From positions 51,934 through 115,933 of the forward strand of contig CANKGV010000003.1 in assembly GCA_947481575.1 (NCBI GenBank): DNA of 64,000 nucleotides, in the 5' to 3' direction. The translations under genes were made by a program, and so were the position numbers. This DNA is from Alphaproteobacteria bacterium. GTDB lineage: Bacteria > Pseudomonadota > Alphaproteobacteria > UBA2966 > CAIVPW01. Each line of letters begins with the position of its first letter. The stretch's first letter is position 1. Under the pieces are notes generated by a model. The model was not told where the DNA came from, ran no database searches, and saw only the letters and a program-made list of their open reading frames with translations. Of this stretch, positions 5,416 to 56,035 are shown piece by piece.

Positions 5416-5554
5416 GCTGCGGCGCTGGTGTTACGGCGGAGGATCCGACCGGTGGCCGGAAAAGAGCCGGTTTCGCCTTGGATTGTCAAGTTTCCGCGCG
5501 GGTTTGGGGCGATCCTATCTAGGCGTCTTGTTGGGCCGCTCAAAACGGTCGATG

Positions 5555-8488: not shown

Positions 8489-8543
8489 TATCTATGTTCC
8501 GGTGGAGTGGATGTAGGAGTCGGTCGACCCAGGGGCAAGCCGA

Positions 8544-11417: not shown

Positions 11418-11463
11418 GAACGATTTCCCCGACCGCAACAGACCAAAGCAAACACGCGCATAC

Positions 11464-12114
11464 ATGCGGCGAGAGGTGCTCACCGCATCTACCGCATTCG
11501 TCTTGTCCGGCTGCACGGTACCAGCAGTGTTCGCGAACATTGGGACGGTCACCCGTACCAGCATCCTGGGCTTGCCGGATGCCCCGGTAGCCACTGCATA
11601 TATTCAAAGTTTACCATACGCGACCATCAGCGCAAAGATCGGCAAGGGGCAACGGTCGGTCCTGGTGCTGGCGCGATTTGACGGTCCGGACCTGCACTGG
11701 GTTTCGGCGGACCATGCTGTGTTTGTGACTCGCAATGGTCGGCTGATCCGCGTGTTTGGAGTTGGCGCGAGTCTAACTGACACGCTTCAACTGGATCGCG
11801 ATCCGATATGCAGCGGCAGCTACGACTTTGATCGCGAGTCGGTTCGTGCTGTCGATCTTGCGGCTGACCAGCGCTACGGAGTTCCCATCAAGTCAACGTA
11901 CCGAGTGTTGGGACGGGAGACGATCGCGATCATGGACCATCAAATCGACGTACTCCGAGTGCGCGAGTTCAGCTCAGCGGTATCCTTTCGTTGGACGTTC
12001 GAGAATGATTTCTGGTTTGATTTTTCGGACGGGTTTCTGTGGAAGAGCGTCCAGAACTTCAACCCCGAAATGGCGCCCGCGGAAATCACGGTGTTGAAGC
12101 CGGCGCGCGTCTAG
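11464..12114 (+). CDS. yjbF: YjbF/GfcB-like lipoprotein
   Basis: ATG 11464 gives MRREVLTASTAFVLSGC lipobox (LSGC); ~216 aa; divergent from the Wza-like gene. Confidence 0.45.
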   Translation: MRREVLTASTAFVLSGCTVPAVFANIGTVTRTSILGLPDAPVATAYIQSLPYATISAKIGKGQRSVLVLARFDGPDLHWVSADHAVFVTRNGRLIRVFGVGASLTDTLQLDRDPICSGSYDFDRESVRAVDLAADQRYGVPIKSTYRVLGRETIAIMDHQIDVLRVREFSSAVSFRWTFENDFWFDFSDGFLWKSVQNFNPEMAPAEITVLKPARV

Positions 12115-14653: not shown

Positions 14654-15569
14654 CCACCCGGCGTGCCTGGAACACGCGGTGCCCGGTCACCCGGAAAGCC
14701 CCGCGCGGCTGGAATCGGTGCTGGCGGCGCTGGCGGCGCCCGCGTTTGCCGGCCTGGTGCGGCGCGAGGCGCCGGAGGCCACGCGCGAGGAACTCGGGCG
14801 GGTTCACGAACTTGGCTACATCGACGCTGTACTCGCCGCCGTTCCGCCCCGCGGCATCGTCGAACTCGATCCGGACACCGCCCTTACCCCGGGGTCGGGG
14901 CGCGCGGCGCTGCGCGCGGCGGGCGCGGTCGTGATGGCGGTCGATGCGGTGGTCGGAGGCTCCGTCACGAATGCCTTTTGCGCCGTGCGGCCACCCGGGC
15001 ACCACGCCGAACGCGGCCGGCCGATGGGGTTCTGCATCTTCAACAACGTGGCGGTGGGGGCCTTGCACGGGCGCGCGGCCCACGGGCTGGAGCGGGTCGC
15101 GATCCTGGATTTTGATGTCCATCACGGCAACGGCTCGCAAAATGTGTGCGCGCCGGATTCCGCGTTGTTTTACGGCAGTACCCATCAGAGTCCGGCGTAT
15201 CCAGGGACCGGGCGCGCCCACGAGACGGGGGTAGCCGGCAACGTCGTCAACGTGCCCTTGCCGCCCGGCACCGGCGGGGCCAAGTTCCGCAACGCCTGGG
15301 CCGAACAGATTCTCCCGGCGCTCGACGCGTTCGCCCCGGATCTGGTGATGGTTTCCGCCGGATTCGATGGGCACCGCGACGATCCGCTTGCGTCCCTGCT
15401 GCTGGAGGAGGCGGACTTCGCCTGGGTGACCAAGGCGATCGGGGCGGTGGCGGCGCGCCATGCGCGCGGCCGCCTTATTTCGGTGCTGGAGGGCGGCTAT
15501 GACGAGGACGCCCTGGCGTCGAGCGTGCAAGCGCACGTAGCGGAATTGATGCTCCTGCGGCAGGCATAG
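14634..15569 (+). CDS. histone-deacetylase-family protein (AcuC/acetylpolyamine amidohydrolase-like); start uncertain (TTG 14634 or CTG 14643; track ORF opens at 14409 inside fadD)
   Basis: LLVSHPACLEH...PPGHHAE...DFDVHHGNG...GGYD catalytic motifs of Zn-dependent deacetylases. Confidence 0.65.
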   Translation: MPTLLVSHPACLEHAVPGHPESPARLESVLAALAAPAFAGLVRREAPEATREELGRVHELGYIDAVLAAVPPRGIVELDPDTALTPGSGRAALRAAGAVVMAVDAVVGGSVTNAFCAVRPPGHHAERGRPMGFCIFNNVAVGALHGRAAHGLERVAILDFDVHHGNGSQNVCAPDSALFYGSTHQSPAYPGTGRAHETGVAGNVVNVPLPPGTGGAKFRNAWAEQILPALDAFAPDLVMVSAGFDGHRDDPLASLLLEEADFAWVTKAIGAVAARHARGRLISVLEGGYDEDALASSVQAHVAELMLLRQA

Positions 15570-15630
15570 GATACCTTGTTCCCCTCGCAGCAGCGAGCAG
15601 TACACTTCATCCTTGTGCGGAGGGATGTGA

Positions 15631-15894
15631 ATGGCCCCCGACGAACTCTCCGAACCTGTGCCCGCCGACATCCGCAAGCTTTCCTTCGAGAAGGCGCTGC
15701 AGGAGTTGGAGGATATTGTGCGCCGGCTCGAAAGCGGCGAGGTCAGCCTGGAAGAATCCATTGCCACGTACAGCCGCGGTATTCAGTTGAAGCGCCACTG
15801 CGAGGCGAAGCTGGAATCAGCCCGCCAGCAGGTCGAGCGCATCGAACTGAAGCCGGGCGGCGCACCCGCGTCCGAGCCGGCTGCCTTTGAATAG
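15631..15894 (+). CDS. xseB: exodeoxyribonuclease VII small subunit
   Basis: SFEKALQELEDIVRRLESGEVSLEESI signature, 87 aa. Confidence 0.85.
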   Translation: MAPDELSEPVPADIRKLSFEKALQELEDIVRRLESGEVSLEESIATYSRGIQLKRHCEAKLESARQQVERIELKPGGAPASEPAAFE

Positions 15895-15904
15895 CGCCGC
15901 ACCC

Positions 15905-16810
15905 ATGCGGGCGCGCCGGGTCGAACCATCGGCGGCCGAGGCGATGGCGGCGACGGGCCGTGCGGTCGACGCCTTTGTGCGCGATCACCTGACCGGTTCG
16001 AGCGCGCCGGATGGCGGACTGTTCGAGGCGATGCAGTATGCGGCGCTCGGGCCCGGCAAGCGGTTCCGGCCGGCGCTGGTGATGGCGGGTGCCGAGTTGT
16101 TTGCCCTGCCGCATCCATCGGCGCTGCGCGTGGCGGCGGCGATCGAGCTGGTACACACCTATTCGCTCGTCCACGACGACCTGCCGTGCATGGACGACGA
16201 CGATTTGCGCCGCGGCCGGCCGACCACCCATGTGAAGTTCGGCGAGGCGACGGCGGTGCTGGTGGGCGATGCCTTGTTGCCCCTCGCCTTCGAGCTGCTC
16301 GTGCATCCGGAGACTCATTCGCGCGCAGAGGTTCGGATCGAACTGGTGCGGGGCCTTGCGGTCGCCTCCGGCGCCCATGGCATGGTCGTCGGGCAGATGC
16401 TGGATCTGGCGGCCGAACACCGGGTGCTGGACTTGGACGGCATCACGCGCCTGCAGGAACTCAAAACCGGCGCTTTGATCACCTTTGCCTGCGAATCGCC
16501 GGCGGTACTCGCCGAAGCCAGCGGCGGCGAGCGGGCCGCGTTGCGCGCATTCGCCCGCGACTTGGGACTCGCGTTCCAGATCACCGACGACATCCTGGAT
16601 GTGGAAGGCACCGCCGCGGCGGTGGGCAAGGGCGTGGGCAAAGACGCCAGCGCGGGCAAAGCCACGTTTGTGTCGCTGCTGGGGGTGGAAGCGGCGCGCG
16701 CCCGGGCGGACGGGCTGATGGAACAAGCGGCCGCGCACCTTGATTGCTTCGGCGCACGTGCGGCAACCTTGCGTGCGCTGGGGCGATTTGTGGTACAGCG
16801 CAGTGCCTAA
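15905..16810 (+). CDS. ispA: farnesyl-diphosphate synthase / geranyltranstransferase
   Basis: [22 protein letters not shown] (first DDxxD) and FQITDDILD (second) motifs; ATG 15905 preferred over track TTG 15887. Confidence 0.8.
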
Positions 16811-32652: not shown

Positions 32653-33816
32653 CTAGTTCGTCCTGCTGACGCAGTGCGCCCCGGTCTGAGAGGGAAATCG
32701 TGATGCCAGTACTGGGCACAACGCCGCCGCGACGAAGGCCGCAACGGCGGTGGCGCCGTCGTTGTTGAAATGCATCGAGTCGTAGAAATAGAGCGTCGTC
32801 TTTGGCATCAGTCGCGCAAGATCGATGACCGACACATTCAGGGTTGCTGCGACATCGCGGGTGACGTCGTTGTAGGAGTCTAACAGGCGCCACTGCGTGT
32901 GACCGTCGAGGACGGAACCCCAAAGGTCCAGCCGCACTCGCGACAGGTCGACGCCGGTCCGAGGATCGACAGCGTCGCCCAACAGAAATGGTTGGGTGAT
33001 CAACACCGGCAGGATTCCGGCTGCGACACTTTCCCGCACCAGATTCTCCAGTCGTGCTCGATAGCCGTCGCGAAACGCGGCGTGTGCGGCGATGAGGGTG
33101 GTGGCGGTCGCGTCCGGCGTTTCCGTGGTAGCGGGCGCGAAACTGCCCGGGTCTCGCGGCACATGGAATTCGCCCTGTGCCAGGCCCCATCGCACGGTAT
33201 GCCAGTACCGGTAGAGATTGAGGCCCAGCGCGCCGATCTCAGTGTGTTGCGCAAGAGCGAGAAGGAACCCTCTCGGGCTGCTCCACGCGGATGCAGGATT
33301 AAGCCGGTCGTCATCGCCCTTCTGGTTGCTGAGTCCCACGTCGTTGGCGCCGACCAGGAACAGGACCACGTTGGGCTGCATTGGCGCGACGGCTTGGTGG
33401 AGAAGCACCGTGTGGCCGAACGAGGAATGTCCGTCGAGGCCGGCGTTCTCGACCCATAGCCGCGGGAAGTTTGGCACGAGGTTTCCAGCCAGCAGTGCTG
33501 GCCAATCCTTGCCGTCGGAAAGGTAGAAGCACTCGGTGGTACTGCCGCCGATCGCAACCACAGTGAGATGGTTCGCCCAATCGGGCGGCGGCATCGGCCC
33601 GCGAAACCCTATTGCGTTCTTGGTATGGACTATTTCGGAGTCGAGGCCATTTCCGGTGGCTCCGTTGAACGCATACCGCATGGTTGCGGGCAATACGATG
33701 CTGTTGCCGCGCAGCCGGAAACCAAAGGGATGGTAAACGTGTAAAAAGCCCTCGATGGCGAGAAGAGCCAGGAGGGTCGCGGCCAAGAGGACCAGAATGT
33801 TAGAAGTTGGGCGCAA
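32653..33816 (-). CDS. membrane-anchored SGNH/GDSL-family hydrolase (putative glycan O-acyl esterase/transferase)
   Basis: N-terminal TM anchor ILVLLAATLLALLAI; block I VVAIGGSTTE and block V DSMHFNNDG motifs. Confidence 0.5.
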   Translation of the reverse strand: MRPTSNILVLLAATLLALLAIEGFLHVYHPFGFRLRGNSIVLPATMRYAFNGATGNGLDSEIVHTKNAIGFRGPMPPPDWANHLTVVAIGGSTTECFYLSDGKDWPALLAGNLVPNFPRLWVENAGLDGHSSFGHTVLLHQAVAPMQPNVVLFLVGANDVGLSNQKGDDDRLNPASAWSSPRGFLLALAQHTEIGALGLNLYRYWHTVRWGLAQGEFHVPRDPGSFAPATTETPDATATTLIAAHAAFRDGYRARLENLVRESVAAGILPVLITQPFLLGDAVDPRTGVDLSRVRLDLWGSVLDGHTQWRLLDSYNDVTRDVAATLNVSVIDLARLMPKTTLYFYDSMHFNNDGATAVAAFVAAALCPVLASRFPSQTGAHCVSRTN

Positions 33817-33825
33817 AGAGCAGCC

Positions 33826-35100
33826 TCATGCCTTAGCGTCCGGAGTTCGAAGTGCCGCCTTGACCGTTCGAGGTACAACGGCGGGTAGATGGGAAATGGC
33901 AGATTTCCATGCGCGCGACGCGCCCATGGCCGCTAGGAAGATCAGCGCCGGGTAAGTGGGAGCGCGGTACCGCCAGTCAAAGTCGAGCAGCGTGAGCGCG
34001 TGGTAAAGGGCGGTGGCGACGATCCACGCGATACTCGCGAACCCCGCCGCAGCGGCGAACCGGCTGTTGCCGCGCAAGGTCGTGGCGGCGCCTACGACAG
34101 CGAGCAAATACAACGGTACGTGGGCGGCGACGTTCATCAGGCGATGCGCGGGACTGTAACCGTCGGCGAGGAACCAGAAGAAGTAACCGGCGCGGGCCAA
34201 GACGACGCGCGTATAGCCCGCGATCGAGGCGTTAGGTCGCAGGTAGGTCTCCGGACGTTGGAACACGACGGCGCCACTCCCAACCTCCGCGCCATAGGCT
34301 GTGGCTACGTCGCGTAGTGCGCCCGGGGGAAGCATCTGCGGATTCCACAACAAGGCGATGCCAGCGGCGAGGCCCACGGCCACTAGGACCATGCCAAGCG
34401 CACAAATCCAAGTGTATCGGAGTCGGGCAGCCCCTTCGGTGGGCGCGTTGTATGCCCAGGCGCCGACTGCCACGGCGGCCACTGCCAGCGCTACGGGCGG
34501 CCATGCTGGCCGGCACAGTGCGGCGGCCGCTAACATGACCGCCGTCCCGCTCCACGCGGCGGTGCGCGTCGGTGTTGGACCCTCACGGCAGCCCCAAAGG
34601 GCCAGCAATACAGCGGCCGTACTGAGCAGGATGAAGAGCGGGTCCGATTGGGTCATGGCGACCCACTGATAGAAATCGAACAGCGACATTAGGAAAGCAA
34701 CGGCCACCCAAAGCGCGAGTGTGCCAGCTTGAGCCTGCCCAAGCATGAGCAACACCAATGCCCCGGTTGCGGCGTAGGCGACCGCGTTCAGAACTACCAA
34801 CGCCTGGGGCCAATGTGGCCCAAACCCTGCCTCGGCCGCGGCGAAGACGTAGATATAGGTGAGGTAGAACTGAACGAGGACGGTATGCGAGGTGCCCGGC
34901 ATTCCGCCGAGCCCATCCGCCGTGTTGCGTGCATCCAACAGGTAGCGCAGTGGACTGTAGTGAAGCGTTGCCAAGGCCTGCGCCATGCTTCGATAGGCCA
35001 ATGAATCTGGAGTGACGATCGGGCCGAACCAGAACCCAAACGCCAGATAGGCCACGCCGAGGCCAAGCCCCACCCCTAAGGCTATCGCGGTCGTCTTCAT
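33826..35100 (-). CDS. polytopic GT-C-like membrane protein (ArnT/PMT_2-like glycosyltransferase or polymerase)
   Basis: ATG 35100 (MKTTAIALGVG); >10 predicted TM helices, no soluble domain. Confidence 0.5.
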   Translation of the reverse strand: MKTTAIALGVGLGLGVAYLAFGFWFGPIVTPDSLAYRSMAQALATLHYSPLRYLLDARNTADGLGGMPGTSHTVLVQFYLTYIYVFAAAEAGFGPHWPQALVVLNAVAYAATGALVLLMLGQAQAGTLALWVAVAFLMSLFDFYQWVAMTQSDPLFILLSTAAVLLALWGCREGPTPTRTAAWSGTAVMLAAAALCRPAWPPVALAVAAVAVGAWAYNAPTEGAARLRYTWICALGMVLVAVGLAAGIALLWNPQMLPPGALRDVATAYGAEVGSGAVVFQRPETYLRPNASIAGYTRVVLARAGYFFWFLADGYSPAHRLMNVAAHVPLYLLAVVGAATTLRGNSRFAAAAGFASIAWIVATALYHALTLLDFDWRYRAPTYPALIFLAAMGASRAWKSAISHLPAVVPRTVKAALRTPDAKA

Positions 35101-35119
35101 AGGCCCTAGTCGCATTTCG

Positions 35120-37018
35120 CTAATGTTGAAGGTGCGGAGCGGCATCGGCGGTCACGGCTCTAGGACCCACCATCCACCGGTCCAGGCTCAGCCAAGCGAA
35201 CAGGACGCCGCGATGGTCGGCTCGCCCCTCGCGGTGCTCTGACCACAGGCGCGCTAGGTGGCCTGCGTCCAGTCCCGCTTCTTCGGCGCGCCCCAAATCG
35301 GGGATGGGCCACTGGCGCAGCCACGCCGCAATCGGGATGCCGAAGCCCTTCTTCGGCCGGCGCAAGACGTCCGGTGGGAGCAACCCCTCGACCGCCCGCC
35401 GGAAGATCCACTTGCGCTCGCCATGCCGGTGCTTGGCGCGATACGGCAGGCGCATACAGAACTCGGCAACAGCGGTATCCAACAACGGGCACCGCACTTC
35501 GAGGGATGTCAGCATGCTGGCCCGATCGACCTTCGCAAGGATGTCGCCGGTCAAGTAGAACCGCGCGTAAAACTCCAACAAGCGGTCGCGCGGGTCGTCG
35601 CTCGCGCAACTGTTCCACAGTGCGATCACGTCGTCGTATACGGCGTCGGCGGCGACCGGAGATCGGCAGATCGCCGACACTTGGTCCAGGTCGGCGGGCG
35701 CCATCCACTGGGCCGCCCACACGGGTGGCGGGTAGGAGACGCCGCGGAGTGCGCGCCGCAGCTTGAAGTCCAAGCTGAGGTTCGAGTCACGCCGGGGCAG
35801 CCACTCGACGGCTCGCCGAAGCGCCCGGTGCAGGGCACGGGGAACCGCAGCGTAATAGAGGCGCGCCGGGGTCATCGCGGTGAAGGTGTCGTATCCGGCA
35901 AACATCTCGTCACCGCCATCGCCGGAAAGCGCCACCGTGACCTGGGTGCGGGCGAATCGCGACAGCAGGTGGGTCGGCAATAGCGACGGGTCGGACACCG
36001 GTTCGTCGATCGATTCGAGCAACGTGCCCAACAGTCCGCGGGAAGCATCCAGACTCAGGCGTTGATGGTGATGCCGTACGCCGAGCGCCGCGGCGGTCGC
36101 CCGCGCCGCATCCACTTCGTCATAACTTGGATCCTCGAACCCGACCGTGAACGCCTGGGCGGTGCCGGCGCCGCGAAGCTGGCAGGCCAGGGCCAACACT
36201 GCCGCCGAATCGATACCGCCGCTCAGGAAGAATCCCAGTGGAACGTCCGCTTCCAGGCGGCGCTCGACCCCGGCGCGCAAAAGGCGCTGCAGCTCCTCGA
36301 TCCAGTCCGCAGCGCTGCCGGAAAGCGGCTGCGCGGCGATGCGGTAGCGCCAATACGGGCGCACTTCCAGACTGCCGGTGGCCACGTCGTACAAGGCGAG
36401 GTCGCCGGCCTCGAGCTTGCTGGCGCCGGCGATCAGCGTACGGGGCGCCGGCACATACCCGAGGGCGAAGAACCGGACCAACGCGTCGCGGTCGAGGTGG
36501 CCGGCCACAGACGGGTGGCGCCGCAGCGCCGTCAGCTCAGACGCGAAAACGATGCCGCGCGCATGGACCGCGTAGTAGAGCGGCTTCTTACCGAATCGGT
36601 CGCGCGCAAACAGGATGCGGTGCCTGTGGCGGTCGTACAGCGCGAACGCGAACATGCCGTCCAAGCGCGGCACCATGCCCTCACCCCACTGGGCGTAGGC
36701 GTGGAGCAGCACCTCGGTGTCGGAGTGGTCGGACCGAAATACAGCGCCCTGCGCGGCAAGCTCGGTCCGCAAGGCTCGGTGGTTGTAGATTTCGCCGTTG
36801 AACACGACGACGAAACGGCCCGCCGAATCCGCCATCGGTTGCGCGCCGCCGACGCTATCCAGAATCGTCAGGCGGCGGAACCCGAGTCCGACCGGCCGGG
36901 CGGACTCAGGCTCAAACCACGCACCCTCGGCGTCGGGTCCGCGATGGACCAGTGCCGCGCACATCGCGGCAAGATCCCCGCGGGTGCCGGGGCCGGCGAA
37001 ACCCGCAATGCCGCACAT
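35120..37018 (-). CDS. asnB: asparagine synthetase (glutamine-hydrolysing) family amidotransferase
   Basis: N-terminal Ntn MCGIAG; synthetase SGGIDSAAV PP-loop. Confidence 0.85.
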   Translation of the reverse strand: MCGIAGFAGPGTRGDLAAMCAALVHRGPDAEGAWFEPESARPVGLGFRRLTILDSVGGAQPMADSAGRFVVVFNGEIYNHRALRTELAAQGAVFRSDHSDTEVLLHAYAQWGEGMVPRLDGMFAFALYDRHRHRILFARDRFGKKPLYYAVHARGIVFASELTALRRHPSVAGHLDRDALVRFFALGYVPAPRTLIAGASKLEAGDLALYDVATGSLEVRPYWRYRIAAQPLSGSAADWIEELQRLLRAGVERRLEADVPLGFFLSGGIDSAAVLALACQLRGAGTAQAFTVGFEDPSYDEVDAARATAAALGVRHHHQRLSLDASRGLLGTLLESIDEPVSDPSLLPTHLLSRFARTQVTVALSGDGGDEMFAGYDTFTAMTPARLYYAAVPRALHRALRRAVEWLPRRDSNLSLDFKLRRALRGVSYPPPVWAAQWMAPADLDQVSAICRSPVAADAVYDDVIALWNSCASDDPRDRLLEFYARFYLTGDILAKVDRASMLTSLEVRCPLLDTAVAEFCMRLPYRAKHRHGERKWIFRRAVEGLLPPDVLRRPKKGFGIPIAAWLRQWPIPDLGRAEEAGLDAGHLARLWSEHREGRADHRGVLFAWLSLDRWMVGPRAVTADAAPHLQH

Positions 37019-38082
37019 CAGTCGTCGGTCGCAGCGTTTCGGATTTCGCGCACCGAATAGGGCCTCTTGTCCTGACTCTCGTGGTAGGTCCGCATCAGCA
37101 TTTCGGCCAGGAGTCCGGACAGAATGCAGACGATGCCGAGCACCATCAGCATTACGACCAGCAATGGCAGCGGCGTGGTGATGAACGGGACGCCGCTAAA
37201 CAGCTTGAGCCAGATTGCCCACAACCCCGCGGCAAGGCCGCCGGCAATGGACGCAAGCCCGAGGCCGCCAAACAGATGCATGGGGCGGTTTGCTGCGCGT
37301 TCCAAGAACAGCACCAGCATCAGGTCGACGATTACGGCGCTCGTCCGGCTGAAGCCGTACTTGGACTTGCCGGTGGTGCGGGGGCGATGGTTGACCGCCA
37401 ATTGCGCGACGCGGGCGCCTTGCCAACTCGCGAAGATGGGGATGAAGCGATGCATCTCGCCGTACAGGCGGATACCTTCGAGCGCCGAGCGGCGGTACAC
37501 CTTTAGTGTGCAGCCGTAGTCGTTGAGCCGCACGCCGGTGAAGGCGGAGATGATCCGGTTGGCAATCTGGCTGACCAACACACGCGACGCGCCATCGCGG
37601 CGCGTGCGGCGCCATCCGGAAACGACGTCGTATCCTTCGTTCAGCTTGGCGAGCAACGCCTGGATATCGGCCGGGTCATTTTGGCCATCGCCGTCCAGCG
37701 TGATGATCAGGTCGCCGAGGGAAAGGTCGAAGCCGGCCATCAGAGCGGCGGTCTGACCGTAGTTGCGGGCAAACCGAACGGGCCGCACGCGGCGATCTAT
37801 GGCGGCGATCGCTGTGAGCTGGTCCCACGTGGCGTCGGTACTGCCGTCGTCAATGAGCAGGATTTCATAGCGGTAGGGCAGGCCGGCCAGCGTCGCCGTC
37901 AGTTCACGAACCAGCGGCGTCACCGATTCAGCTTCGTTGAAGACCGGCACTACGATCGAAAGGTCGGGCGGTGCTGCTACTGTGGTTGGGCGTTCGGGCA
38001 CGCCGGGCTCGCCTACTGCGTGCATCTGTTTGTGCGCCAACCGTCGCATTCCACGCTCACCGAACCTATCCCGGTATCCCAC
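37018..38082 (-). CDS. family-2 glycosyltransferase, polyprenyl-phosphate sugar synthase type (DPM1/ArnC/GtrB-like) with C-terminal TM helices
   Basis: LSIVVPVFNE...LLIDDGSTD...ITLDGDGQND motifs plus two C-terminal TM helices; stop overlaps asnB ATG (TGATG). Confidence 0.8.
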   Translation of the reverse strand: MGYRDRFGERGMRRLAHKQMHAVGEPGVPERPTTVAAPPDLSIVVPVFNEAESVTPLVRELTATLAGLPYRYEILLIDDGSTDATWDQLTAIAAIDRRVRPVRFARNYGQTAALMAGFDLSLGDLIITLDGDGQNDPADIQALLAKLNEGYDVVSGWRRTRRDGASRVLVSQIANRIISAFTGVRLNDYGCTLKVYRRSALEGIRLYGEMHRFIPIFASWQGARVAQLAVNHRPRTTGKSKYGFSRTSAVIVDLMLVLFLERAANRPMHLFGGLGLASIAGGLAAGLWAIWLKLFSGVPFITTPLPLLVVMLMVLGIVCILSGLLAEMLMRTYHESQDKRPYSVREIRNAATDD

Positions 38083-39196
38083 ACAGCCGCAGATATTGCG
38101 CGGCCACGGCCCGCCAGCCGAAGTCCTGCTCCATTCGCCGACGCGCGGCCGCCCCGAGCTGTGCGGCGGTGTTTGGGTTGGTCATCAGGCGGGTCACGGC
38201 CTGGGCCAAGGCGCCAGCGTCATCCACCGGCACTAGAATGCCGCATTCGCCGTTAGAAATCACCTCGCGGATCGACGGAATGTCGCTGGCCACCACGGCG
38301 AGTCCGCTCGCCATCGCCTCGAGCAGCGCGTTGGGTACGCCTTCATGGCGCGATGGGAACACAAAGATGTCGGCGGCGCGGTACAGGTCGGGGAGCGCGG
38401 CGCGCTCGACCCACCCGCGCATCCGCACCCACTCCGCGCACCCTAGCTGCTCGGCGTGACGTGCGATTCGCTCGCGGTCGGGGCCGTCGCCAACCAGTTC
38501 GAGTTCCCACGTCCCGGGTACGCGCGACAGACCTGTCAGCAGAACGTCCAGGCCCTTCTGTTCGGTGACCAGGCGCCCGACGAACAGTACCCGGGTCACC
38601 TCGCCGGGGGCCTTGGGCGGCACGGCGGGAGCGAACACGGTGGTATCGACCCCATTCGGCACCGCCGCGATTTCGAGCCCCGGCGCATATGCGCGCGCTA
38701 GCGTGCGAAGCCCAGACCCGTTGGCGATGATCACGGCGGCACGGCGCCACACCATGCGCAGGAGAAACCCGGATACCTGGTGGGCCCGGCGGAGTTGTTG
38801 CGGCAGGAAACCGGGAACGTCGCCGCCGCGCAAGGAGACGGCGTAGGGAATGCGGAACAACGCATAGAGAAGCCATGCGATCGGGCCCGACGGGAGCCCG
38901 AAGAAGGCGACAACGCGATCGGGCCGGTTGCGAAGCGCGATGAGAATAGCGGCGGGCGCGGCCATAGCCATGAAGCCGATCATCTCCGCGATGGTGGCAC
39001 GGTCACGCCGCCGGCGCCCCGACCACACGCGCCGGACATTCATCCCGGCCGTGAATTCGCTGTGCCGCAACCCGCGGTGCCACGCCGTCAGAACGGTCAC
39101 GTCGTGGCCCAGTTCAACCATCGCACGGCCGATCTCGAAGCTAGCCGTCGCGGCGCCTCCGCCCAGCGGAGGAAACTCGTAGTTGATCAGGAGCAG
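38066..39196 (-). CDS. family-4 glycosyltransferase; true start unresolved (first ATG at 39121 lies downstream of conserved N-terminal motif; CTG 39196 given as nominal start)
   Basis: In-frame upstream codons encode LLLINYEFPPLGGGAATASFEIGRA, the canonical GT4 Gly-rich N-terminus; C-terminal EGVPNALLEAMASGLAVVASD motif. Confidence 0.65.
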   Translation of the reverse strand: MLLINYEFPPLGGGAATASFEIGRAMVELGHDVTVLTAWHRGLRHSEFTAGMNVRRVWSGRRRRDRATIAEMIGFMAMAAPAAILIALRNRPDRVVAFFGLPSGPIAWLLYALFRIPYAVSLRGGDVPGFLPQQLRRAHQVSGFLLRMVWRRAAVIIANGSGLRTLARAYAPGLEIAAVPNGVDTTVFAPAVPPKAPGEVTRVLFVGRLVTEQKGLDVLLTGLSRVPGTWELELVGDGPDRERIARHAEQLGCAEWVRMRGWVERAALPDLYRAADIFVFPSRHEGVPNALLEAMASGLAVVASDIPSIREVISNGECGILVPVDDAGALAQAVTRLMTNPNTAAQLGAAARRRMEQDFGWRAVAAQYLRLCGIPG

Positions 39197-39274
39197 GCGC
39201 GTGGCAAAGCCTTGAGTCGACAGGGGTTCCGTGGCATTGCCTTCGGGCAGGGCGGATGGAGCCGTGCGACAAGT

Positions 39275-40234
39275 ATGCCACAGAATGTACGGGGATCTGC
39301 CTTGGCCTTCGCGCCCGCGGTTGCTACGGAGACGGTGCCGTGTCCGCTGTGCGCGAGCCTAGCATTCGAAATCCTGTTCTCGGCTGGGGACTATGAGTAC
39401 GGCCTTCCCGGAGAGTTCTTCGTTTCCCGGTGCCGGCAATGTGGCCTGATGGTGCAAAACCCACGGCCAGCGTTCTCCGAGATTCTGCGGTACTACACCG
39501 AGGCCTACGAGCCGCATCACAGTCCCGGAACCGCTCTTGTGCGCCGCCTGCGCCATCGCGTGCTGGTGCAACCCAAGCTGCGGCTTATCCGGTCGTTGGT
39601 GGGGGACACGGGTGATGTCATCGACATCGGTTGCGGGAGCGGTGCGTTGCTGGCGGATCTCGCCCAATTCGGACACTGGCGGCTGATGGGCGTTGAGCCC
39701 AACCGCGAAGCCGCCGCGTCGGCGCGTGGGCGCGGCCTTACGATCGCGGCGACGGTTGTCGAGGAGGCCCAGGTTGCTGCGCAGTCGCAGGACGTCGCCA
39801 TCATGAACCACGTCCTGGAACATCTGCCCGATCCCCGCCAAACGGTGGCTCATGTGCAGACGCTCCTGCGCCCCGGTGGTCATTTCATCGGCGAGGTCCC
39901 GAGCCCGCAATGCGTGGAGCGCGTGCTGTTCGGCCGGTACTGGGGCGGGTACCATTTGCCGCGGCACCTGACGTTCTTTTCGCGAGACCAGCTCACGCGG
40001 TTTCTGGCCCAAGCTGGATTCCGTGAGATCAGGGTCCGCCGGGTCATTCAGCCCTCGTCGTGGCTGACCAGTGCGTCAAACTACTTCCGTTCCCGCAACA
40101 GCGCGGCCGCCAGATTCGTGAGTCCACACGGCTTCATCTTGCTTGCGGCCGGGGTACTGCCGGCGCTCGCGCTCAAGGTCCTCGGCAGCGCTCCGATCTT
40201 GGCCTTTTCTTGCCGCAAGCCGAGTTGCCGGTGA
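39275..40234 (+). CDS. class I SAM-dependent methyltransferase with N-terminal zinc ribbon (alt GTG start 39332)
   Basis: CPLC...CRQC ribbon then VIDIGCGSGAL motif I. Confidence 0.65.
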   Translation: MPQNVRGSALAFAPAVATETVPCPLCASLAFEILFSAGDYEYGLPGEFFVSRCRQCGLMVQNPRPAFSEILRYYTEAYEPHHSPGTALVRRLRHRVLVQPKLRLIRSLVGDTGDVIDIGCGSGALLADLAQFGHWRLMGVEPNREAAASARGRGLTIAATVVEEAQVAAQSQDVAIMNHVLEHLPDPRQTVAHVQTLLRPGGHFIGEVPSPQCVERVLFGRYWGGYHLPRHLTFFSRDQLTRFLAQAGFREIRVRRVIQPSSWLTSASNYFRSRNSAAARFVSPHGFILLAAGVLPALALKVLGSAPILAFSCRKPSCR

Positions 40235-41172
40235 GCGCCGTCCACCAGGTTCGCGGTCTGCGGCGGCAACTGCGTCCGCTGCTAGTCGGCCTCGAGCCGT
40301 GCGACAACTGGCGGGCCGCGCTGGAGATCGGTGGAATCGTCGCTGCACTGATCGCGATTGAAGTTGCAGCCTTCGCTGCGGAGCGCACCGGGTACTGGGG
40401 CCTGTTCGTGCCGCTGGCGCTCGCGGTTGCTGTCGTTCAGGTGCGGATGGCGATCCTTCACCACGAGGCGGTGCATCGCCTGCTGTTCAGTAACCCCGCA
40501 CTGAACGATATCGTGGGGCTTCGCATCATCGGAGCGTCAATCGGCGCGCTGCCCAAATACTCGCGCCGGTCGCACCTCAGCCACCACGCCTACCTGGGCG
40601 ACCCCTGGGACCTGGAACGGGCAAACTACGACCCGCCGGCGAGCGCCCCGGCGTTCGTTCTGTGGCTAGCCCGCAAGGCGCTCGGCATTGAACCGCTGCA
40701 ACGGCTGGTCCGGCTGCTCCGGCACCGGCCCGCCGCCGCCGCCGGGCCGCCGCCGCCGCACAGTTCCGATTGGATCAACTTGGCGGTGATGCAGACGGCG
40801 ATTCTCGGGGGGCTGGCAGCGCTCGGTAGCGCCGAGCACTACCTGATCCTTTGGATCGCGCCGCTCATGACAGTGAGCCGCGCGCTCATGGGCGTGCGTG
40901 CTCTGGCGGAACACCTTCCGTTCCCCGGGCCGGAGGGGACGCGGTACCTGACGACGTTTGATGCTGGGCCGGTTGAGCGCCTGCTGCTTGCACCGCTGGG
41001 ATTTCAGTACCACGCGGAACATCATCTATTGCCGTCGATTCCGTCGTGGCGGCTATGGCGCGCCGCTGCGGCGATTCGTTCCCACGCGGAGTTTCCGCGC
41101 CTGGCGCGGCGCCGCGCCGGTTACGGCGCAGCCCTCCGGGAGTTCTATCGGGCCGGAGGCGCCGGTGTTTGA
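40231..41172 (+). CDS. membrane fatty-acid-desaturase-family di-iron oxygenase (desaturase/hydroxylase)
   Basis: GTGA overlap start; three His boxes HHEAVH, HLSHHAY, HAEHH. Confidence 0.7.
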   Translation: MSAVHQVRGLRRQLRPLLVGLEPCDNWRAALEIGGIVAALIAIEVAAFAAERTGYWGLFVPLALAVAVVQVRMAILHHEAVHRLLFSNPALNDIVGLRIIGASIGALPKYSRRSHLSHHAYLGDPWDLERANYDPPASAPAFVLWLARKALGIEPLQRLVRLLRHRPAAAAGPPPPHSSDWINLAVMQTAILGGLAALGSAEHYLILWIAPLMTVSRALMGVRALAEHLPFPGPEGTRYLTTFDAGPVERLLLAPLGFQYHAEHHLLPSIPSWRLWRAAAAIRSHAEFPRLARRRAGYGAALREFYRAGGAGV

Positions 41173-41869
41173 TTACGGTGACGTGTGGGTCGACGACTGG
41201 AGCGACATGCGGCAGTTCGGTCCCTCGGCGCGTCATCTGCGCAATATCGTCCTAGCGCTGCTTCGTGATCTGCAGTTTGCCACGGTCCTCGACGTTGGGT
41301 GTGGCGAAGGCTCGCTGCTGAACGATCTATACGGCGTGCAGCCGGCGCTGCTGCCGTTCGGAGTTGATCTCTCCGAGAGCGCCCTCGCCCGGGCGCGCCA
41401 GCGGGTGCCTGGCGGCGAGTTTGCGTCGCTCGATGTTGCCAGCGCGCGCTTGCAACGCCAGTTCGATCTGGTCGTCTGCACCGATGTGGTTGAGCACATC
41501 CCGGACGACCGCGCTGCGCTCGGCAACCTTGCCGGGATGACCGGGCGGTATCTCCTGGTCAGCAGTCTCCAAGGGCGCATGCGTGGGTTCGAAGCGACGG
41601 TCGGGCACGTGCGCAACTACAAGCTAGGCGAACTCGCAGCCAAGATCGAAGAGACGGGTCTTCGGGTGGTGCGGGTTGTCCAATGGGGGTTCCCGTTCTT
41701 CAGTCCGCTGTACCGGAACCTATTGGATGGGGTCGGGGGGCGCGGCACGACCGGGCAGTACGGACGGTTCCGCCGCCTGATTGCCGGGGCCCTCTATCAG
41801 TTGTTCCGCCTGAACACGTGGACACGCGGCGACGTGATCGTTGTTCTCGCGGAGCGCCCCCACGCATGA
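41165..41869 (+). CDS. class I SAM-dependent methyltransferase (alt ATG 41207)
   Basis: GTG overlapping desaturase stop; VLDVGCGEGSL motif I, DLVVCTDVVEHIPD motif. Confidence 0.65.
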   Translation: MFDYGDVWVDDWSDMRQFGPSARHLRNIVLALLRDLQFATVLDVGCGEGSLLNDLYGVQPALLPFGVDLSESALARARQRVPGGEFASLDVASARLQRQFDLVVCTDVVEHIPDDRAALGNLAGMTGRYLLVSSLQGRMRGFEATVGHVRNYKLGELAAKIEETGLRVVRVVQWGFPFFSPLYRNLLDGVGGRGTTGQYGRFRRLIAGALYQLFRLNTWTRGDVIVVLAERPHA

Positions 41870-42765
41870 AGCCGAGCGCTGCGGTCGTGCTGGGACGGCC
41901 CGAGTTGCGGTACTTGGACGACGTTATCGTGGAAAGCCTGCGGCGCGAGGGATTCTGTGGGCCCGTGTCGCGTCGCGATGCGCATGCGTTGGCGCACGAT
42001 GTTCTGTCCGACCAACGCATCGATGAGCAACTCGAGCTGCTGTCGCGGTCTACGCCGCTGCAGGGCCGGCGCATCCTTGAAGTGGGGAGCGGCTGGGGCG
42101 GACTGGTCGTGCGGGGCCGGGTCGCGTACGGACTGGAGATATTCGGGCTTGAGCCGTCGCGTGCCGAGTTCTCGTCCGCGTGGACAGTAAGCCGGGCGCT
42201 CCTGCAGGCGTTCAGCGTGCCGGACCACGTCATCGTCAACGGGCGCGGCGAGGCGATGCCGTTCGCCGACGCGAGCTTCGACGTCGTCTACTCCACCAAT
42301 GTTCTGGAGCATGTCGACGACCCCATCGCAGTCCTCAACGAGTCGCTGCGGGTGTTGCGGCCCGGTGGGGTGCTGCAAATGGTGGTGCCGAACTACGGTT
42401 CGTGGTGGGAGGGGCATTACGGCGTGTTCTGGCTGCCCCATCTCACGCCGGCGCTCGCGCGCATCTACGTACGGCTGCTGGGGCGGGATCCGAGCTATCT
42501 GCGGGGGTTGCGGTTCATCTCGCTCGGCACCCTCCGGCGTTGGGCGCGCACCAAGGCGGACACCGCGGTTGTACTGGGCTGGGGCGAAGACGTATTCGCC
42601 GAGCGGCTCCGCACCATCGAATTTCAGCCCTGGGCGGCACTGGGGAAGGTGCGCACCGCGGCGCACTGGTTGCGGCGCGCGGGGCTGACCGATGCGTTCA
42701 TTGCGATGAGCCGCTGGTTCGGCTGGGTCACGCCGATTGTTCTTACCTTGCGTAAGCGCGGCTGA
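41866..42765 (+). CDS. class I SAM-dependent methyltransferase (Methyltransf_11-like)
   Basis: ATGA overlap; ILEVGSGWGG motif I, FDVVYSTNVLEHVDDP, LRPGGVL. Confidence 0.65.
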   Translation: MKPSAAVVLGRPELRYLDDVIVESLRREGFCGPVSRRDAHALAHDVLSDQRIDEQLELLSRSTPLQGRRILEVGSGWGGLVVRGRVAYGLEIFGLEPSRAEFSSAWTVSRALLQAFSVPDHVIVNGRGEAMPFADASFDVVYSTNVLEHVDDPIAVLNESLRVLRPGGVLQMVVPNYGSWWEGHYGVFWLPHLTPALARIYVRLLGRDPSYLRGLRFISLGTLRRWARTKADTAVVLGWGEDVFAERLRTIEFQPWAALGKVRTAAHWLRRAGLTDAFIAMSRWFGWVTPIVLTLRKRG

Positions 42766-44219
42766 TGGGGCGCGGGCTGCCGGCCACGGCGATCCTGCTG
42801 CTGGCGGCGGGCGCGGCAATTCGGATCGCCGGCGCAGTGCTTTGGCCGACCGGCGGTGGCGATACCGCAATCTACATGACGGTTGCTGAGAACATTGCCC
42901 AACACGGATGCGTATCCGTGTCGCCGCCAGCGAGCGGCGCGTGCGTACCCCACTGGGGCGGGAATCAGCTGCCCCTGTACCCGGCCTTTCTGGCCGTGTG
43001 GCTGGTTGGCGGCGGCCTCTCGAGCACAACCATCGGGCTCGCCCAGGCGGTGCTGGAACTGCTGGCGATCGCGCGTCTTGGACAGGCGGTCGCCGACTTG
43101 GCGGGCCGCAAGGCCGGATGGCTGACGGTGGCCGTACTCGCAATCGCTCCGACGGAGTGGTTCTGGTCGCGGTACGTGCTGACCGAGTCGCTATCCATCG
43201 CCGCGCACCTGTGGCTGTGGGCCGAGCTTCTGCTGTGTTTGGCGCAGGCCCGGCCTCGCGCATTGCCTGTTGCCGTGGCGCTGGCGGTCAATGTCGGCTT
43301 GCGCCTCGATGCCGCATTCCTAGTTGCACCGGTGGTGGCGACCTTTTTCATGGTGGCGCCGCCGCGCGCGGCGCTACGCGGGCTGGTCGTTGCGGCGATG
43401 ATTGCCGGCGCCCCATTTTTGGCTTGGACGGTTCGCAGCCATCTTGCCGGGTTGCCGTGGTCGCCGATCGCCGCCCTCAGCAATCAAGACCGGAGCGCGG
43501 CGCCGGCTGGATACTTTGCGTGGCTGCGGACCTGGCAGGTCAATCAATACGACCTGCCCACGAACTCGTGGCCGGTTCTTACGCAGGAGTACTCCCGGGT
43601 TGTTTTGACGCCACGGGCCGTCGCTGGCGCGACGCCGGGCGAGGCCCGCGACCTTGCGCAGTTGTTCGCGGAACTGGCGAACCACGACCACGAGGCGTTT
43701 CCGCCGGAGATTGACGCCGCATTGGGGAAGCTGGCCGCGGACATGCGCGCGCGGGAGCCGATACGGCATTGGGTGCTGCTGCCCCTGGCGCGCGCAGGAT
43801 GGGCTTGGTTCAACCCATTCACGTCGTATGCGTGGCCGCAATTCGAGCGCGCGGGGCGTACCAGTGTCGACTACGTAACGATGAACTGGCGGTCGTTTCT
43901 CGACGAGCCGTCCTTCTTGGTGGCGCGAGTTGTTCCGAATGCCTGGCGCATCGCCGCGCTGCTGACGCTCGTGATTGCGCCCTTGTTCTGGCGCCGGCTC
44001 GGCGTAGATGCGCGCCGCGTCTACTGGCTGACCCTGCTCTACCTGGTTTTGCGCACGGCGGCGTTTGCGATGATTGCGGGGGTTGAGACCCGCTACATCG
44101 TCGAAACGGTCCCGCTCCTGGAATGCCTGGCGGTGCTAGTAGCGACGAGCCTGTGGCCCGCGCTCCGGCAGCATGCCCCGGCGCAGGCGTCCGGGCCTGT
44201 TGCGAGGCCCGGACGTTAG
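42765..44219 (+). CDS. ArnT/PMT_2-like GT-C family membrane glycosyltransferase
   Basis: TGATG overlap; ~12 TM helices; N-terminal loop with YMTVAENIAQHG; GT-C-like architecture. Confidence 0.55.
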   Translation: MGRGLPATAILLLAAGAAIRIAGAVLWPTGGGDTAIYMTVAENIAQHGCVSVSPPASGACVPHWGGNQLPLYPAFLAVWLVGGGLSSTTIGLAQAVLELLAIARLGQAVADLAGRKAGWLTVAVLAIAPTEWFWSRYVLTESLSIAAHLWLWAELLLCLAQARPRALPVAVALAVNVGLRLDAAFLVAPVVATFFMVAPPRAALRGLVVAAMIAGAPFLAWTVRSHLAGLPWSPIAALSNQDRSAAPAGYFAWLRTWQVNQYDLPTNSWPVLTQEYSRVVLTPRAVAGATPGEARDLAQLFAELANHDHEAFPPEIDAALGKLAADMRAREPIRHWVLLPLARAGWAWFNPFTSYAWPQFERAGRTSVDYVTMNWRSFLDEPSFLVARVVPNAWRIAALLTLVIAPLFWRRLGVDARRVYWLTLLYLVLRTAAFAMIAGVETRYIVETVPLLECLAVLVATSLWPALRQHAPAQASGPVARPGR

Positions 44220-45057: not shown

Positions 45058-45134
45058 TGGTCGGGGAGAGAGGATTCGAACCTCCGGCCCCCACGTCCCG
45101 AACGTGGTGCTCTACCAGGCTGAGCTACTCCCCG
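45058..45134 (-). tRNA. tRNA-Pro (anticodon CGG)
   Basis: 77-nt cloverleaf: acceptor CGGGGAG/CTCCCCG, D-arm GCTCAGCCTGGTAGAGC, anticodon loop TTCGGGA, T-arm GGTTCGAATCC, discriminator A, encoded CCA. Confidence 0.8.
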
Positions 45135-54877: not shown

Positions 54878-56035
54878 ATGACCCCACGCGAACTGGTTGA
54901 CGTTCTGCGCAAGCACGAACGATTCGTACGCGGCCAATTGGGCGGCCAGCGCGCCGATTTGCGCGGCGCCGACCTGTCGGGCCTGCGGCTGCGCGGCATC
55001 ACCTTGCGGGATGGCAGCTTGGCCGGCACCGACTTCCGCAAGGCGGACGTGTCGGAGTCGGATTTGAGCTCCGCCGACTTGTACGGGGCCAACTTTGAGC
55101 GCGCCACGGCGACGCAGACCAATTTCGAGCGGGCGGACCTGCGCGCCGCCAGCTTCCGCGGCACCGTGCTCACCAACGCGCGGTTGGCCGGGGCCGACCT
55201 GCGGGCGGGCGCCTTGATCGGTTCGATCGGTAAGCCCAAGGCGGCGGACCTTTCGGAAACGAACCTCGATGGCTCGGACCTTTCGGAGGCCAAGGCCACC
55301 GGCGGCAACCTGCGCAATGCGTCGCTGAAGGAAGCGAATTTGCAGCGCGCGACCATGGTGAAGGTCGACCTGCGCGGCGCCAACTTGTGTGGCGCGGATC
55401 TCACCGGCGCCACGCTTACCGGCGCCGATCTGGCCGGGGCCAACATGACCGGGGCGAATGTCATGCGCGCCAAGCTCAACGGCGCGCGCCTCACCGGCAC
55501 GATCATGACCGGCGTGGACCTCTCCTCGGCCGATCTGCGCGACGCCACGATCTCGCGCGGGGTGTTGAAGCTATCTGAAGAGCTGCAGTTGATGCTGAGC
55601 GCCCATGTGCTTTGGTCCGAGACGGGCGGGTCCGAAGGGGCCCGCGCCGTGTTGGATGGGCGCGACCTGTCCGGCCTCGACCTGTCGCACGTGTTCCTCA
55701 GCGGGGCCAGCCTGCGGGGCTGCAACTTTGCCAGCTCGACGCTGGTAGAGGCAGAGTTAGTGCTGGCAGACCTGCAGGAAGCTAACCTGTCGGGTGCCGA
55801 TCTGCGCCGCGCCGATCTATCGGGCGCCAGCTTCCTCAAGGCTGATCTACGCCACGCCAAATTGGCGAACGCGCTACTGAAGCCGGTGGAATTGCGCGGG
55901 TCGCACGGCGAGGTTAAGGGCCGCGCGATTCGTACCAGCCTGCGCGGGGCACTGACCGACGACATCGACATGACCCACGTCGATCTCACCGATGCCCAGG
56001 TCGATGAGGCCGCGCCGGGCACCGGCGACGCCTGA
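54878..56035 (+). CDS. pentapeptide-repeat protein
   Basis: Dozens of A(D/N)LxG-type pentapeptide repeats (ADLRGADLSGLRLRG...). Confidence 0.75.
   Translation: MTPRELVDVLRKHERFVRGQLGGQRADLRGADLSGLRLRGITLRDGSLAGTDFRKADVSESDLSSADLYGANFERATATQTNFERADLRAASFRGTVLTNARLAGADLRAGALIGSIGKPKAADLSETNLDGSDLSEAKATGGNLRNASLKEANLQRATMVKVDLRGANLCGADLTGATLTGADLAGANMTGANVMRAKLNGARLTGTIMTGVDLSSADLRDATISRGVLKLSEELQLMLSAHVLWSETGGSEGARAVLDGRDLSGLDLSHVFLSGASLRGCNFASSTLVEAELVLADLQEANLSGADLRRADLSGASFLKADLRHAKLANALLKPVELRGSHGEVKGRAIRTSLRGALTDDIDMTHVDLTDAQVDEAAPGTGDA

Follow-up and report, generated by a model that had tools for sequence, protein, structure and literature searches.

What might a cell make with three methyltransferases, a desaturase-type membrane oxygenase and a membrane glycosyltransferase that are encoded one after the other? 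The question is raised by a stretch of 64,000 nucleotides (the window) on contig CANKGV010000003.1 of an Alphaproteobacteria bacterium (assembly GCA_947481575.1), in which five consecutive open reading frames (ORFs) occupy 39275/39302-44219 of the + strand in the order MT1, oxygenase (DES), MT2, MT3 and GT-C. The initial annotation of the window treated these five genes as one unit. The genes and their operon were borne out by our analysis, whereas the functional unit is instead the ten-gene divergent locus at 32653-44219, of which the five genes form one arm. We consider it somewhat better than an even chance that the ten-gene locus encodes a system for extracytoplasmic glycosylation that depends on a lipid carrier and is combined with an unusual set of tailoring enzymes. 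Its product would be a methylated, possibly hydroxylated and amidated sugar, attached to a cell-envelope molecule; that the oxygenase acts on this sugar is a tentative proposal, which we hold well short of even.

The five ORFs and the four overlapping junctions described between them are supported by reading of the sequence, by gene calling, by codon-position GC content and by substitution ratios. As read from the sequence, the stop codon of MT1 overlaps the GTG start codon of the oxygenase gene (GTGA, 40231-40234). The GTG start of MT2 (41165), which is preceded by a GGAGG Shine-Dalgarno sequence 7 nt upstream, and the TGA of the oxygenase gene (41170-41172) create an 8-nt overlap; MT2 and MT3 share ATGA (41866-41869), and MT3 and GT-C share TGATG (42763-42767). 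On contigs L001-L006, which are identical in sequence and are either metagenomic or part of the metagenome-assembled genome (MAG) GCA_947471125.1, an independent gene caller set the same boundaries for four of the five genes. For MT1 the caller picked TTG 39302 over ATG 39275, so the start of MT1 is ambiguous. With GC contents of 0.76-0.83 at the third codon position (GC3) against ∼0.5 at the second (GC2), all five are coding frames. Compared to the ∼95%-identical sister contig L008, the ratio of nonsynonymous to synonymous substitution (dN/dS) is 0.09-0.20 for all five genes, indicating purifying selection, and it is 0.09-0.29 when four genes of the neighbouring divergent operon are included.

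The five genes form a compact, tightly packed operon with real coupling. Describing their co-expression as obligate was an over-reading, since stop/start overlaps are ordinary in this genome and one of the four is missing from the sister contig. The divergent operon also has overlapping genes (GT4/GT2 by 17 nt, GT2/AsnB by 1 nt). In L008 (9990-10003, corresponding to 40220-40234 of the window), one TGC to TGA change ends MT1 two codons earlier, so that MT1 and the oxygenase gene, instead of overlapping by 4 nt, are separated by 2 nt. A scan for promoters and terminators gave no signal above shuffled expectation. On both sides the locus is flanked by housekeeping genes (KefB-like, outer membrane protein (OMP), tRNA, IspB, GlyQS and PPDK), and its GC3 is slightly lower than that of the housekeeping genes (0.73-0.83 versus 0.81-0.87).

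Two membrane enzymes carry the proposed reading, namely the GT-C protein at the end of the five-gene arm and the family 2 glycosyltransferase (GT2) of the opposite arm (Table 1). The GT-C protein is polytopic and has the conserved transmembrane (TM) core of the GT-C superfamily. Its model, which was built from ten family members, reached a pLDDT of 84.5 and a pTM of 0.86; when the model was searched with Foldseek, the first 39 matches were all GT-C enzymes, with ArnT at the top. In GT-C enzymes, a catalytic acidic residue is located where the first extracytoplasmic loop begins. In the ten family members, Asp33, which follows TM1 (helix 7-26), and Tyr37 are invariant, and Asp33 may well be the equivalent of the catalytic Asp of ArnT and PMT. 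Between the hydrophobic helices, the model contains one mostly helical stretch of low hydropathy (residues ∼230-380), which could be an inserted soluble region. Searched against the PDB, the family profile matched only TMEM260, a protein O-mannosyltransferase, and only weakly (E 6e-4); a precomputed PF13231 match is present in only three of nine homologs. The earlier designation of the protein as an ArnT/PMT-like GT-C thus stands at the level of fold, by model and Foldseek search, and falls at the level of ArnT/PMT family membership, for which no profile match was obtained.

The GT2 combines a catalytic domain with full-length similarity to ArnC and with two C-terminal hydrophobic segments (∼270-301 and 307-325), which correspond to the two TM helices typical of polyprenyl-phosphate sugar synthases. 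It scores 152 bits with the PgfS model and only 35 bits, a weak match, with CruG. Its ArnC score of 200 bits lies under the equivalog cut-off of 529, so the match does not assign it a sugar specificity. GT2 orthologs with 44-52% identity adjoin homologs of either GT-C or the oxygenase. Transfer at the periplasmic face from a lipid-linked donor, which had been predicted from the five genes, is further supported by this ArnC-like synthase of the divergent operon; with such an enzyme in the locus and in homolog loci, the donor of the GT-C protein would be a polyprenyl-phosphate-linked sugar.

Next to the GT2 gene, the divergent arm encodes one AsnB-type amidotransferase, which scores 474 bits with the XrtA/PEP-CTERM amidotransferase model (cut-off 817), and TM439, one polytopic protein of 439 residues. 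Aligned by hhalign, the TM439 and GT-C families matched over 354 columns with a probability of 89.7% (E 1.9e-6). The AlphaFold2 model of TM439 (pLDDT 84.5) has high-probability Foldseek matches that are mainly GT-C enzymes, with E values of at least 0.012. Going by the profile alignment and the model, TM439 is probably a second, distant GT-C-like transferase. The SGNH protein at the end of this arm is probably periplasmic.

The oxygenase was described as a three-His-box di-iron membrane enzyme, and its PF00487 match, which is above the gathering score, together with its invariant histidines confirmed this. The boxes are HEAVH (residues 78-82; 40462-40476), HLSHH (115-119; 40573-40587) and HAEHH (261-265; 41011-41025), to which His228 is added; nine His residues are invariant among the homologs. 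The best, and the only full-length, curated match of the oxygenase is GntB (NF041365), aligned at model positions 16-288 of 308 with 82.9 bits, compared to an equivalog cut-off of 380. GntB is also the best curated match for all 12 tested members of the oxygenase subfamily, with the best member (E 7e-38) still far below the cut-off. For GntB, the L-arginine gamma-hydroxylase of guanitoxin biosynthesis, a transmembrane location and gamma-hydroxy-arginine as the product have been described (bioRxiv 10.1101/2023.03.21.533663); its substrate is polar. The two proteins are similar in length (308 model positions versus 313 residues). However, a score so far below the cut-off means that the oxygenase is no ortholog of GntB. 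Its substrate is expected to differ from that of GntB, because its context consists of glycan genes instead of a PLP (pyridoxal phosphate) cyclase/toxin cluster. In one HMMER scan of 1.84 billion representatives, 2163 relatives were found at E <= 1e-3, 623 at E <= 1e-10 and 9 at E <= 1e-30; the closest relative outside the lineage shares 44% identity. The oxygenase subfamily is rare.

MT1, MT2 and MT3 are three distinct class-I S-adenosylmethionine (SAM) methyltransferases, one of them with a Cys4 ribbon, just as the initial annotation had it; Pfam matches, solved relatives and the alignment of homologs agree on this. Methyltransf_23, _11, _12 and _25 are above their cut-offs for all three proteins, and motif I reads VIDIGCGSG in MT1, VLDVGCGEG in MT2 and ILEVGSGWG in MT3. 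The N-terminal zinc ribbon of MT1 is formed by C23, C26, C53 and C56 (39341-39442), and residues 282-304 form one C-terminal hydrophobic tail; the Cys4 residues, one WGGxHxPRH motif and the tail are kept in nine homologs. The nearest solved relatives of MT1 are NDP-sugar 3-C-methyltransferases of the TcaB9 type (E ∼1e-10), the match including part of the zinc domain. Like TcaB9 (E 1e-10) and TylC3-type enzymes, MT1 has one N-terminal Cys4 zinc module followed by the SAM domain. Different from them, it lacks the C-terminal sugar-nucleotide-binding domain (Methyltransf_14) and ends in the hydrophobic tail instead. No PF08484 or PF08421 match was found in MT1, whereas the true family member in locus L025 has both; judged by its domains, MT1 is not a TcaB9-type enzyme.

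The solved relatives of MT2 are generic only. Those closest to MT3 are the D-glucose O-methyltransferase 6uv6 and 3bus, both near E 1e-10; 3bus, deposited merely as 'Methyltransferase', is presumably RebM, a sugar 4'-O-methyltransferase. One of the two closest solved relatives of MT3 is hence a named sugar O-methyltransferase. With identities to solved sugar methyltransferases as low as those of MT1 and MT3, neither the regiochemistry nor the methylated atom can be inferred. Lipid methyltransferases (CMAS, PmtA) were considered and rejected, the matches being sub-threshold or generic.

Table 1. Features of the ten-gene divergent locus, in window coordinates
Feature	Position	Strand	Matches and remarks
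SGNH/GDSL-family protein	32653..33816	-	Lipase_GDSL_2 9e-14; N-terminal hydrophobic segment, residues 7-25 (signal/anchor)
TM439, polytopic membrane protein, 439 aa	33826..35145	-	No Pfam match
AsnB-type glutamine-dependent amidotransferase	35120..37018	-	Asn_synthase 5e-80, GATase_7 1e-44; intact N-terminal Cys (MCGIAG)
ArnC/GtrB-type GT2, polyprenyl-phosphate sugar synthase	37018..38082	-	ArnC model 200 bits, positions 8-311 of 316
GT4, GT-B fold cytoplasmic glycosyltransferase	38066..39121	-	Glyco_trans_1_4 5e-40, Glycos_transf_1 1e-37; dN/dS 0.20
Divergent control region	39122..39274		Also carries, on the - strand, the conserved GT4 N-terminus without canonical start codon
MT1, class-I SAM methyltransferase	39275..40234	+	Methyltransf_23 6e-26; alternative start TTG 39302
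Oxygenase (DES), membrane di-iron FA_desaturase family, 313 aa	40231..41172	+	PF00487 100.2 bits versus cut-off 29.7
MT2, small class-I SAM methyltransferase, 234 aa	41165..41869	+	Methyltransf_23/12/25/11, 1e-12 to 6e-11
MT3, class-I SAM methyltransferase, 299 aa	41866..42765	+	Methyltransf_11 2e-17
GT-C-fold membrane glycosyltransferase, 484 aa	42765..44219	+	Invariant Asp33 (42861-42863) just past TM1; Cys-containing periplasmic loop

How might these proteins work together? In the scheme that we propose, the ArnC-like GT2 would first, on the cytoplasmic side of the membrane, transfer one sugar from its nucleotide donor to polyprenyl phosphate. The membrane-tethered sugar would then be tailored. 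Provided that it is a uronic acid, the AsnB-type enzyme would amidate it; the membrane di-iron oxygenase would oxidise it, most likely by hydroxylation, and the tail-anchored MT1, together with MT2 and MT3, would methylate it. A flippase encoded outside the locus would subsequently move the lipid-linked sugar across the membrane, where the GT-C protein, and probably also TM439, would transfer it to one envelope acceptor, such as lipopolysaccharide (LPS) or another surface glycan. The identities and folds of the proteins, the purifying selection and the recurrent gene neighbourhoods are observations; we infer from them in what order the steps occur, that the sugar is tailored while lipid-linked, what reaction the oxygenase carries out and which acceptor is used. 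The tailoring enzymes are placed at the cytoplasmic face because they need SAM, ATP and glutamine, and reducing equivalents; in the FA_desaturase family, the His boxes face the cytoplasm. Tailoring of a carrier-linked sugar has a precedent in ArnD. The logic of synthase, flippase and GT-C enzyme is established for other systems, in which auxiliary epimerases tailor the carrier-linked sugar (PMC11127046). Within this scheme, the oxygenase and MT1 might constitute one two-enzyme module, not recognised so far, that oxidises a C-H position of a sugar on polyprenyl phosphate, or of another membrane-bound glycan intermediate, and then methylates the new position. We regard such a module as doubtful, and hydroxylation followed by O-methylation is our guess for its chemistry.

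Is this arrangement conserved? The complete ten-gene arrangement occurs only on the identical contigs and on L008. Looking for the MT-desaturase-MT-MT-GT-C synteny elsewhere gave a divided answer: the five-gene order is lineage-specific, and its sub-modules recur in uncultured bacteria. Among the GTDB species representatives, the GT-C family was found at only 12 loci, all from MAGs, which belong mostly to Alphaproteobacteria, apart from single loci of Desulfobacteraceae and Magnetococcales; long flanks are available for ten of the 12. AsnB relatives are present in five of these ten (L012-L015 and L020; 38-54% identity by tblastn, some in pieces). Similarly, five of the ten contain GT2s related to the ArnC-like GT2 of the window at E <= 1e-20, with 51-52% identity in L013 and L020 and weaker similarity in L012, L014 and L015 (31-36%, E 1e-20 to 2e-42). 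TM439 relatives are located beside GT-C homologs in L015 and L104; in L016 the relative is cut off at the locus end, ∼9.6 kb away. The metagenomic GT-C contexts agree with these, and add LPG_synthase_TM, carbamoyltransferases and sugar-nucleotide enzymes. LPG_synthase_TM, the flippase-like domain of MprF, is found next to the GT-C homolog in L007 (8985-11485) and next to the oxygenase homolog in L106 (10001-12000); it is a candidate for the flippase function that is missing from the ten-gene locus.

Homologs of TM439 occur in triads of GT2 (with GT2_TM_C or without), methyltransferase and TM439 in L104 and L105, and L104 holds both GT-C paralogs. In L104, L105 and L020, methyltransferases weakly similar to MT2 have GT2 on one side and a GT-C-like gene on the other. 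The triads of L104 and L105 suggest that methylation is tied to the carrier-linked sugar. In L105 we also observed UbiA, HAD, one small ORF and GMC oxidoreductase consecutively (13122-16616). By analogy, this gene row resembles a donor pathway of the decaprenyl-phosphoribose/arabinose type, as discussed for pentofuranose three-component systems (PMC11127046).

The oxygenase has its own recurrent neighbours. In the three closest contexts that could be consulted (L106, L107 and L108), the oxygenase ortholog lies beside an MT1 ortholog (54%, 50% and 39% identity, respectively) and a GT2; L108 encodes the oxygenase, three methyltransferases and GT2. When these three are taken together with the seven best metagenome matches (L024-L030) as the ten closest contexts, a full-length MT1 homolog adjoins the oxygenase in six (L106, L107, L108, L025, L028 and L030), and in two more (L026 and L027) the oxygenase is accompanied by a small methyltransferase and an ArnC-like GT2. 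As for the remaining two, L024 is too short for neighbours and L029 lacks such a partner. In L025, the oxygenase-MT1 pair heads one operon of DegT, formyltransferase, acetyltransferase, short-chain dehydrogenase/reductase (SDR) and sugar-C-methyltransferase genes. Of 80 metagenome loci that encode more distant relatives of the oxygenase, seven have a full-length MT1 homolog as its direct neighbour (GC 0.33-0.71), and an ArnC-like GT2 (33-47% identity), with or without AsnB, adjoins the oxygenase in three (L026, L027 and L062). On the low-GC contigs L026 (30-1330) and L027 (1-1199), two tandem oxygenase paralogs are followed by a small, truncated-looking methyltransferase and by the ArnC-like GT2 (44-47%). 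L026 also encodes one AsnB relative (46% identity, partial). Both contigs show the module in compact form, in an organism that is phylogenetically remote. From these recurrent neighbourhoods, the conserved units are the oxygenase-MT1 pair on the one hand and a module of GT2, AsnB and GT-C (or GT-C-like) genes on the other; the window combines both.

Nothing that we found contradicts the earlier view that this gene combination is not a characterised pathway: no characterised or annotated equivalent was present in plasmid records, in the GTDB species representatives (MAGs only) or in targeted full-text searches of the literature. By tblastn, 72,556 plasmids gave no relative of the oxygenase or of GT-C; for MT1 they gave one unannotated Phocaeicola match with 30% identity. 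The relatives found are metagenomic or MAG sequences, and those with a name are called either 'hypothetical protein' or 'fatty acid desaturase'. The word-indexed homolog searches returned 10, 7 and 14 relatives, numbers that understate the family sizes.

Several observations weigh against the proposed glycosylation system. No flippase candidate (GtrA, MATE, ArnE/F, LPG_synthase_TM) was identified among the ten genes, and the locus has no room for an extra gene. Sugar-nucleotide synthesis genes, which would point to the sugar, are absent from the locus as well. At E <= 0.01, the 484-residue GT-C protein matches nothing in Pfam or NCBIfam, including PMT (PF02366), PMT_2 (PF13231) and ArnT, and the fold matches of TM439 lack statistical significance when taken alone. 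It is established that FA_desaturase enzymes classically act on lipid chains and not on sugars. The GT2s beside the oxygenase-MT1 pairs of L106-L108 are not ArnC-like, so the pair may use a substrate other than a polyprenyl-phosphate sugar. Finally, all relatives are derived from metagenomes or MAGs, and none of these subfamilies has one experimentally studied member.

Some of these points are shared by the rival that survives best. It keeps the same machinery, but has the oxygenase work on a lipid: an acyl or isoprenoid chain, either of the acceptor (a lipid A acyl chain, for example) or of the carrier, would be desaturated or hydroxylated. The substrates of the methyltransferases would be nucleotide sugars or the completed glycan. 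PF00487 enzymes classically use acyl or isoprenoid chains, the oxygenase has weak partial matches to CrtR (34 bits), CrtW, DesA and DesB, and the GT2s that are not ArnC-like beside the closest oxygenase-MT1 pairs fit this explanation too. However, GntB, which hydroxylates a polar substrate, is the best curated match of the oxygenase and the sole one at full length. The CMAS (PF02353) matches of MT3 (25.3 bits) and MT2 (17.9 bits), which could be counted for action on lipids, are below the gathering score of 27 and cover the SAM-binding core alone. Moreover, the readable neighbours of the oxygenase subfamily are sugar or glycan genes (DegT, formyltransferase, sugar C-methyltransferase, GT2 and AsnB), never fatty-acid or lipid A genes. 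We judge this explanation unlikely.

An improbable alternative is a free glycolipid. The oxygenase would hydroxylate a carotenoid, hopanoid or hydroxy-fatty-acid aglycone, which GT2 and GT4 would glycosylate at the new hydroxyl, and the methyltransferases would O-methylate the sugar, much as in carotenoid glycosides. Methylated sugars do occur in cyanobacterial myxol glycosides, and the weak matches of GT2 to CruG and of the oxygenase to CrtR, together with the polyprenyl synthase gene 1 kb downstream, would fit. However, GT2 fits ArnC, at full length, far better than CruG, and the two GT-C-fold proteins imply a polyprenyl-phosphate-linked donor and periplasmic transfer. By its score, the polyprenyl synthase is of the IspB-type housekeeping kind, with the OMP gene and the tRNA in between, and no carotenoid or hopanoid genes are located nearby.

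Improbable as well is that proteins of the periplasm or outer membrane, instead of LPS or polysaccharide, are the acceptors of the GT-C enzymes, in O-glycosylation of the PMT/TMEM260 type. A fortuitous juxtaposition, with MT-oxygenase-MT-MT as an independent small-molecule or lipid pathway beside unrelated glycosylation genes, is highly improbable: the five-gene order is confined to the lineage and none of the 12 species-representative GT-C loci has an oxygenase homolog, but four successive stop/start overlaps run through to the GT-C gene, oxygenase homologs recur by ArnC-like GT2 and AsnB (L026, L027, L062) and within sugar loci, and an MT2-like methyltransferase is repeatedly flanked by GT2 and a GT-C-like gene.

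Other features of the locus and of its surroundings deserve mention. The frame of GT4 is open upstream of its ATG at 39121 (39122-39205) and encodes there a canonical N-terminus, RLLLINYEFPPLGGGAATASFEIGRA, without ATG, GTG or TTG; candidate upstream starts are CTG 39196, CTG 39190 and ATC 39187. The single difference between the window and L008 within this stretch is synonymous in the GT4 frame. GT4 either starts at a rare start codon or is truncated at its N-terminus; in the first case, the divergent intergenic region shrinks to ∼80-105 bp. About 840 bp past the end of the locus, one single tRNA gene (45061-45134, - strand; Rfam, 65 bits) is located between the OMP and IspB-like genes and could mark an old integration site. 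The 385-residue pentapeptide-repeat protein encoded at 54878-56035 (+ strand; Pentapeptide 2e-63) is apparently unrelated to the locus. At 172-11594, the - strand encodes one NAD epimerase/dehydratase, one CysN/CysC fusion, one CysD-like protein, one 977-residue YjbH and one 1016-residue fusion of Poly_export, SLBB repeats and a GfcC C-terminal domain. These genes are a set for polysaccharide export and sulfation, of which the Yjb/Wza-like export part lies 21-27 kb upstream of the locus; the GC3 of the YjbH and Wza-like genes is low (0.66-0.70). The set may make a sulfated exopolysaccharide, which would be a possible acceptor for the GT-C enzymes.

Antibiotic resistance, serotype and the properties of the envelope are influenced by extracytoplasmic glycosylation with polyprenyl-phosphate sugars, as in the Arn, Gtr, Rgt, mycobacterial arabinan and GT136 systems. 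To our knowledge, the enzymes that modify the carrier-linked sugar in the known systems are deformylases, deacetylases or epimerases (for epimerases, PMC11127046). If the locus methylates, oxidises and amidates a carrier-linked sugar, the chemistry known on lipid carriers would be wider, and a first function would be assigned to one rare FA_desaturase subfamily, to its methyltransferase partner and to one GT-C family unseen by Pfam and NCBIfam. If the oxygenase-MT1 module holds, sugars with methoxy or hydroxymethyl decorations would be reached by a new route, and the fatty-acid-desaturase fold would gain a new class of substrates. If the oxygenase acts on an acyl chain instead, the locus would be an ordinary lineage-specific envelope-modification cluster. 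Because oxygenase, methyltransferase and sugar genes are linked in bacteria whose GC content ranges from 33 to 71%, the proposal can be tested.

How does the locus compare with known systems? An autonomous O-antigen or exopolysaccharide locus was rejected, as no Wzx, Wzy, ABC transporter, initiating phosphoglycosyltransferase or Wza/Wzc was found among the ten genes or the checked neighbours; a carotenoid glycoside pathway (CrtR/CruG-like) was rejected on weak partial matches only. The Arn system (PmrHFIJKLM), which adds 4-amino-4-deoxy-L-arabinose (L-Ara4N) to lipid A, couples the ArnC synthase with the GT-C enzyme ArnT, and the locus likewise pairs an ArnC-like GT2 with GT-C. However, none of the ten genes matches ArnA, ArnB, ArnD or ArnE/F, GT2 is under the ArnC cut-off, and the GT-C protein lacks both the C-terminal periplasmic domain and any PMT, PMT_2 or ArnT match; membership in Arn or Rgt was rejected. 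Methyltransferases, oxygenase and AsnB are all absent from Arn loci, whereas the locus has all three kinds. The three-component systems (Gtr, and the pentofuranose/GT136 systems; Kelly et al. 2024, PMC11127046) likewise have a synthase and a GT-C enzyme in or beside glycan loci, where auxiliary enzymes diversify the sugar. Different from them, the locus has two GT-C-like proteins and no flippase gene, whereas their flippase is dedicated; an auxiliary set of three methyltransferases, one di-iron oxygenase and AsnB is not described for these systems. The tailoring pair of oxygenase and methyltransferase is the part for which no characterised counterpart was found, and the overall scheme into which it is set is a familiar one.

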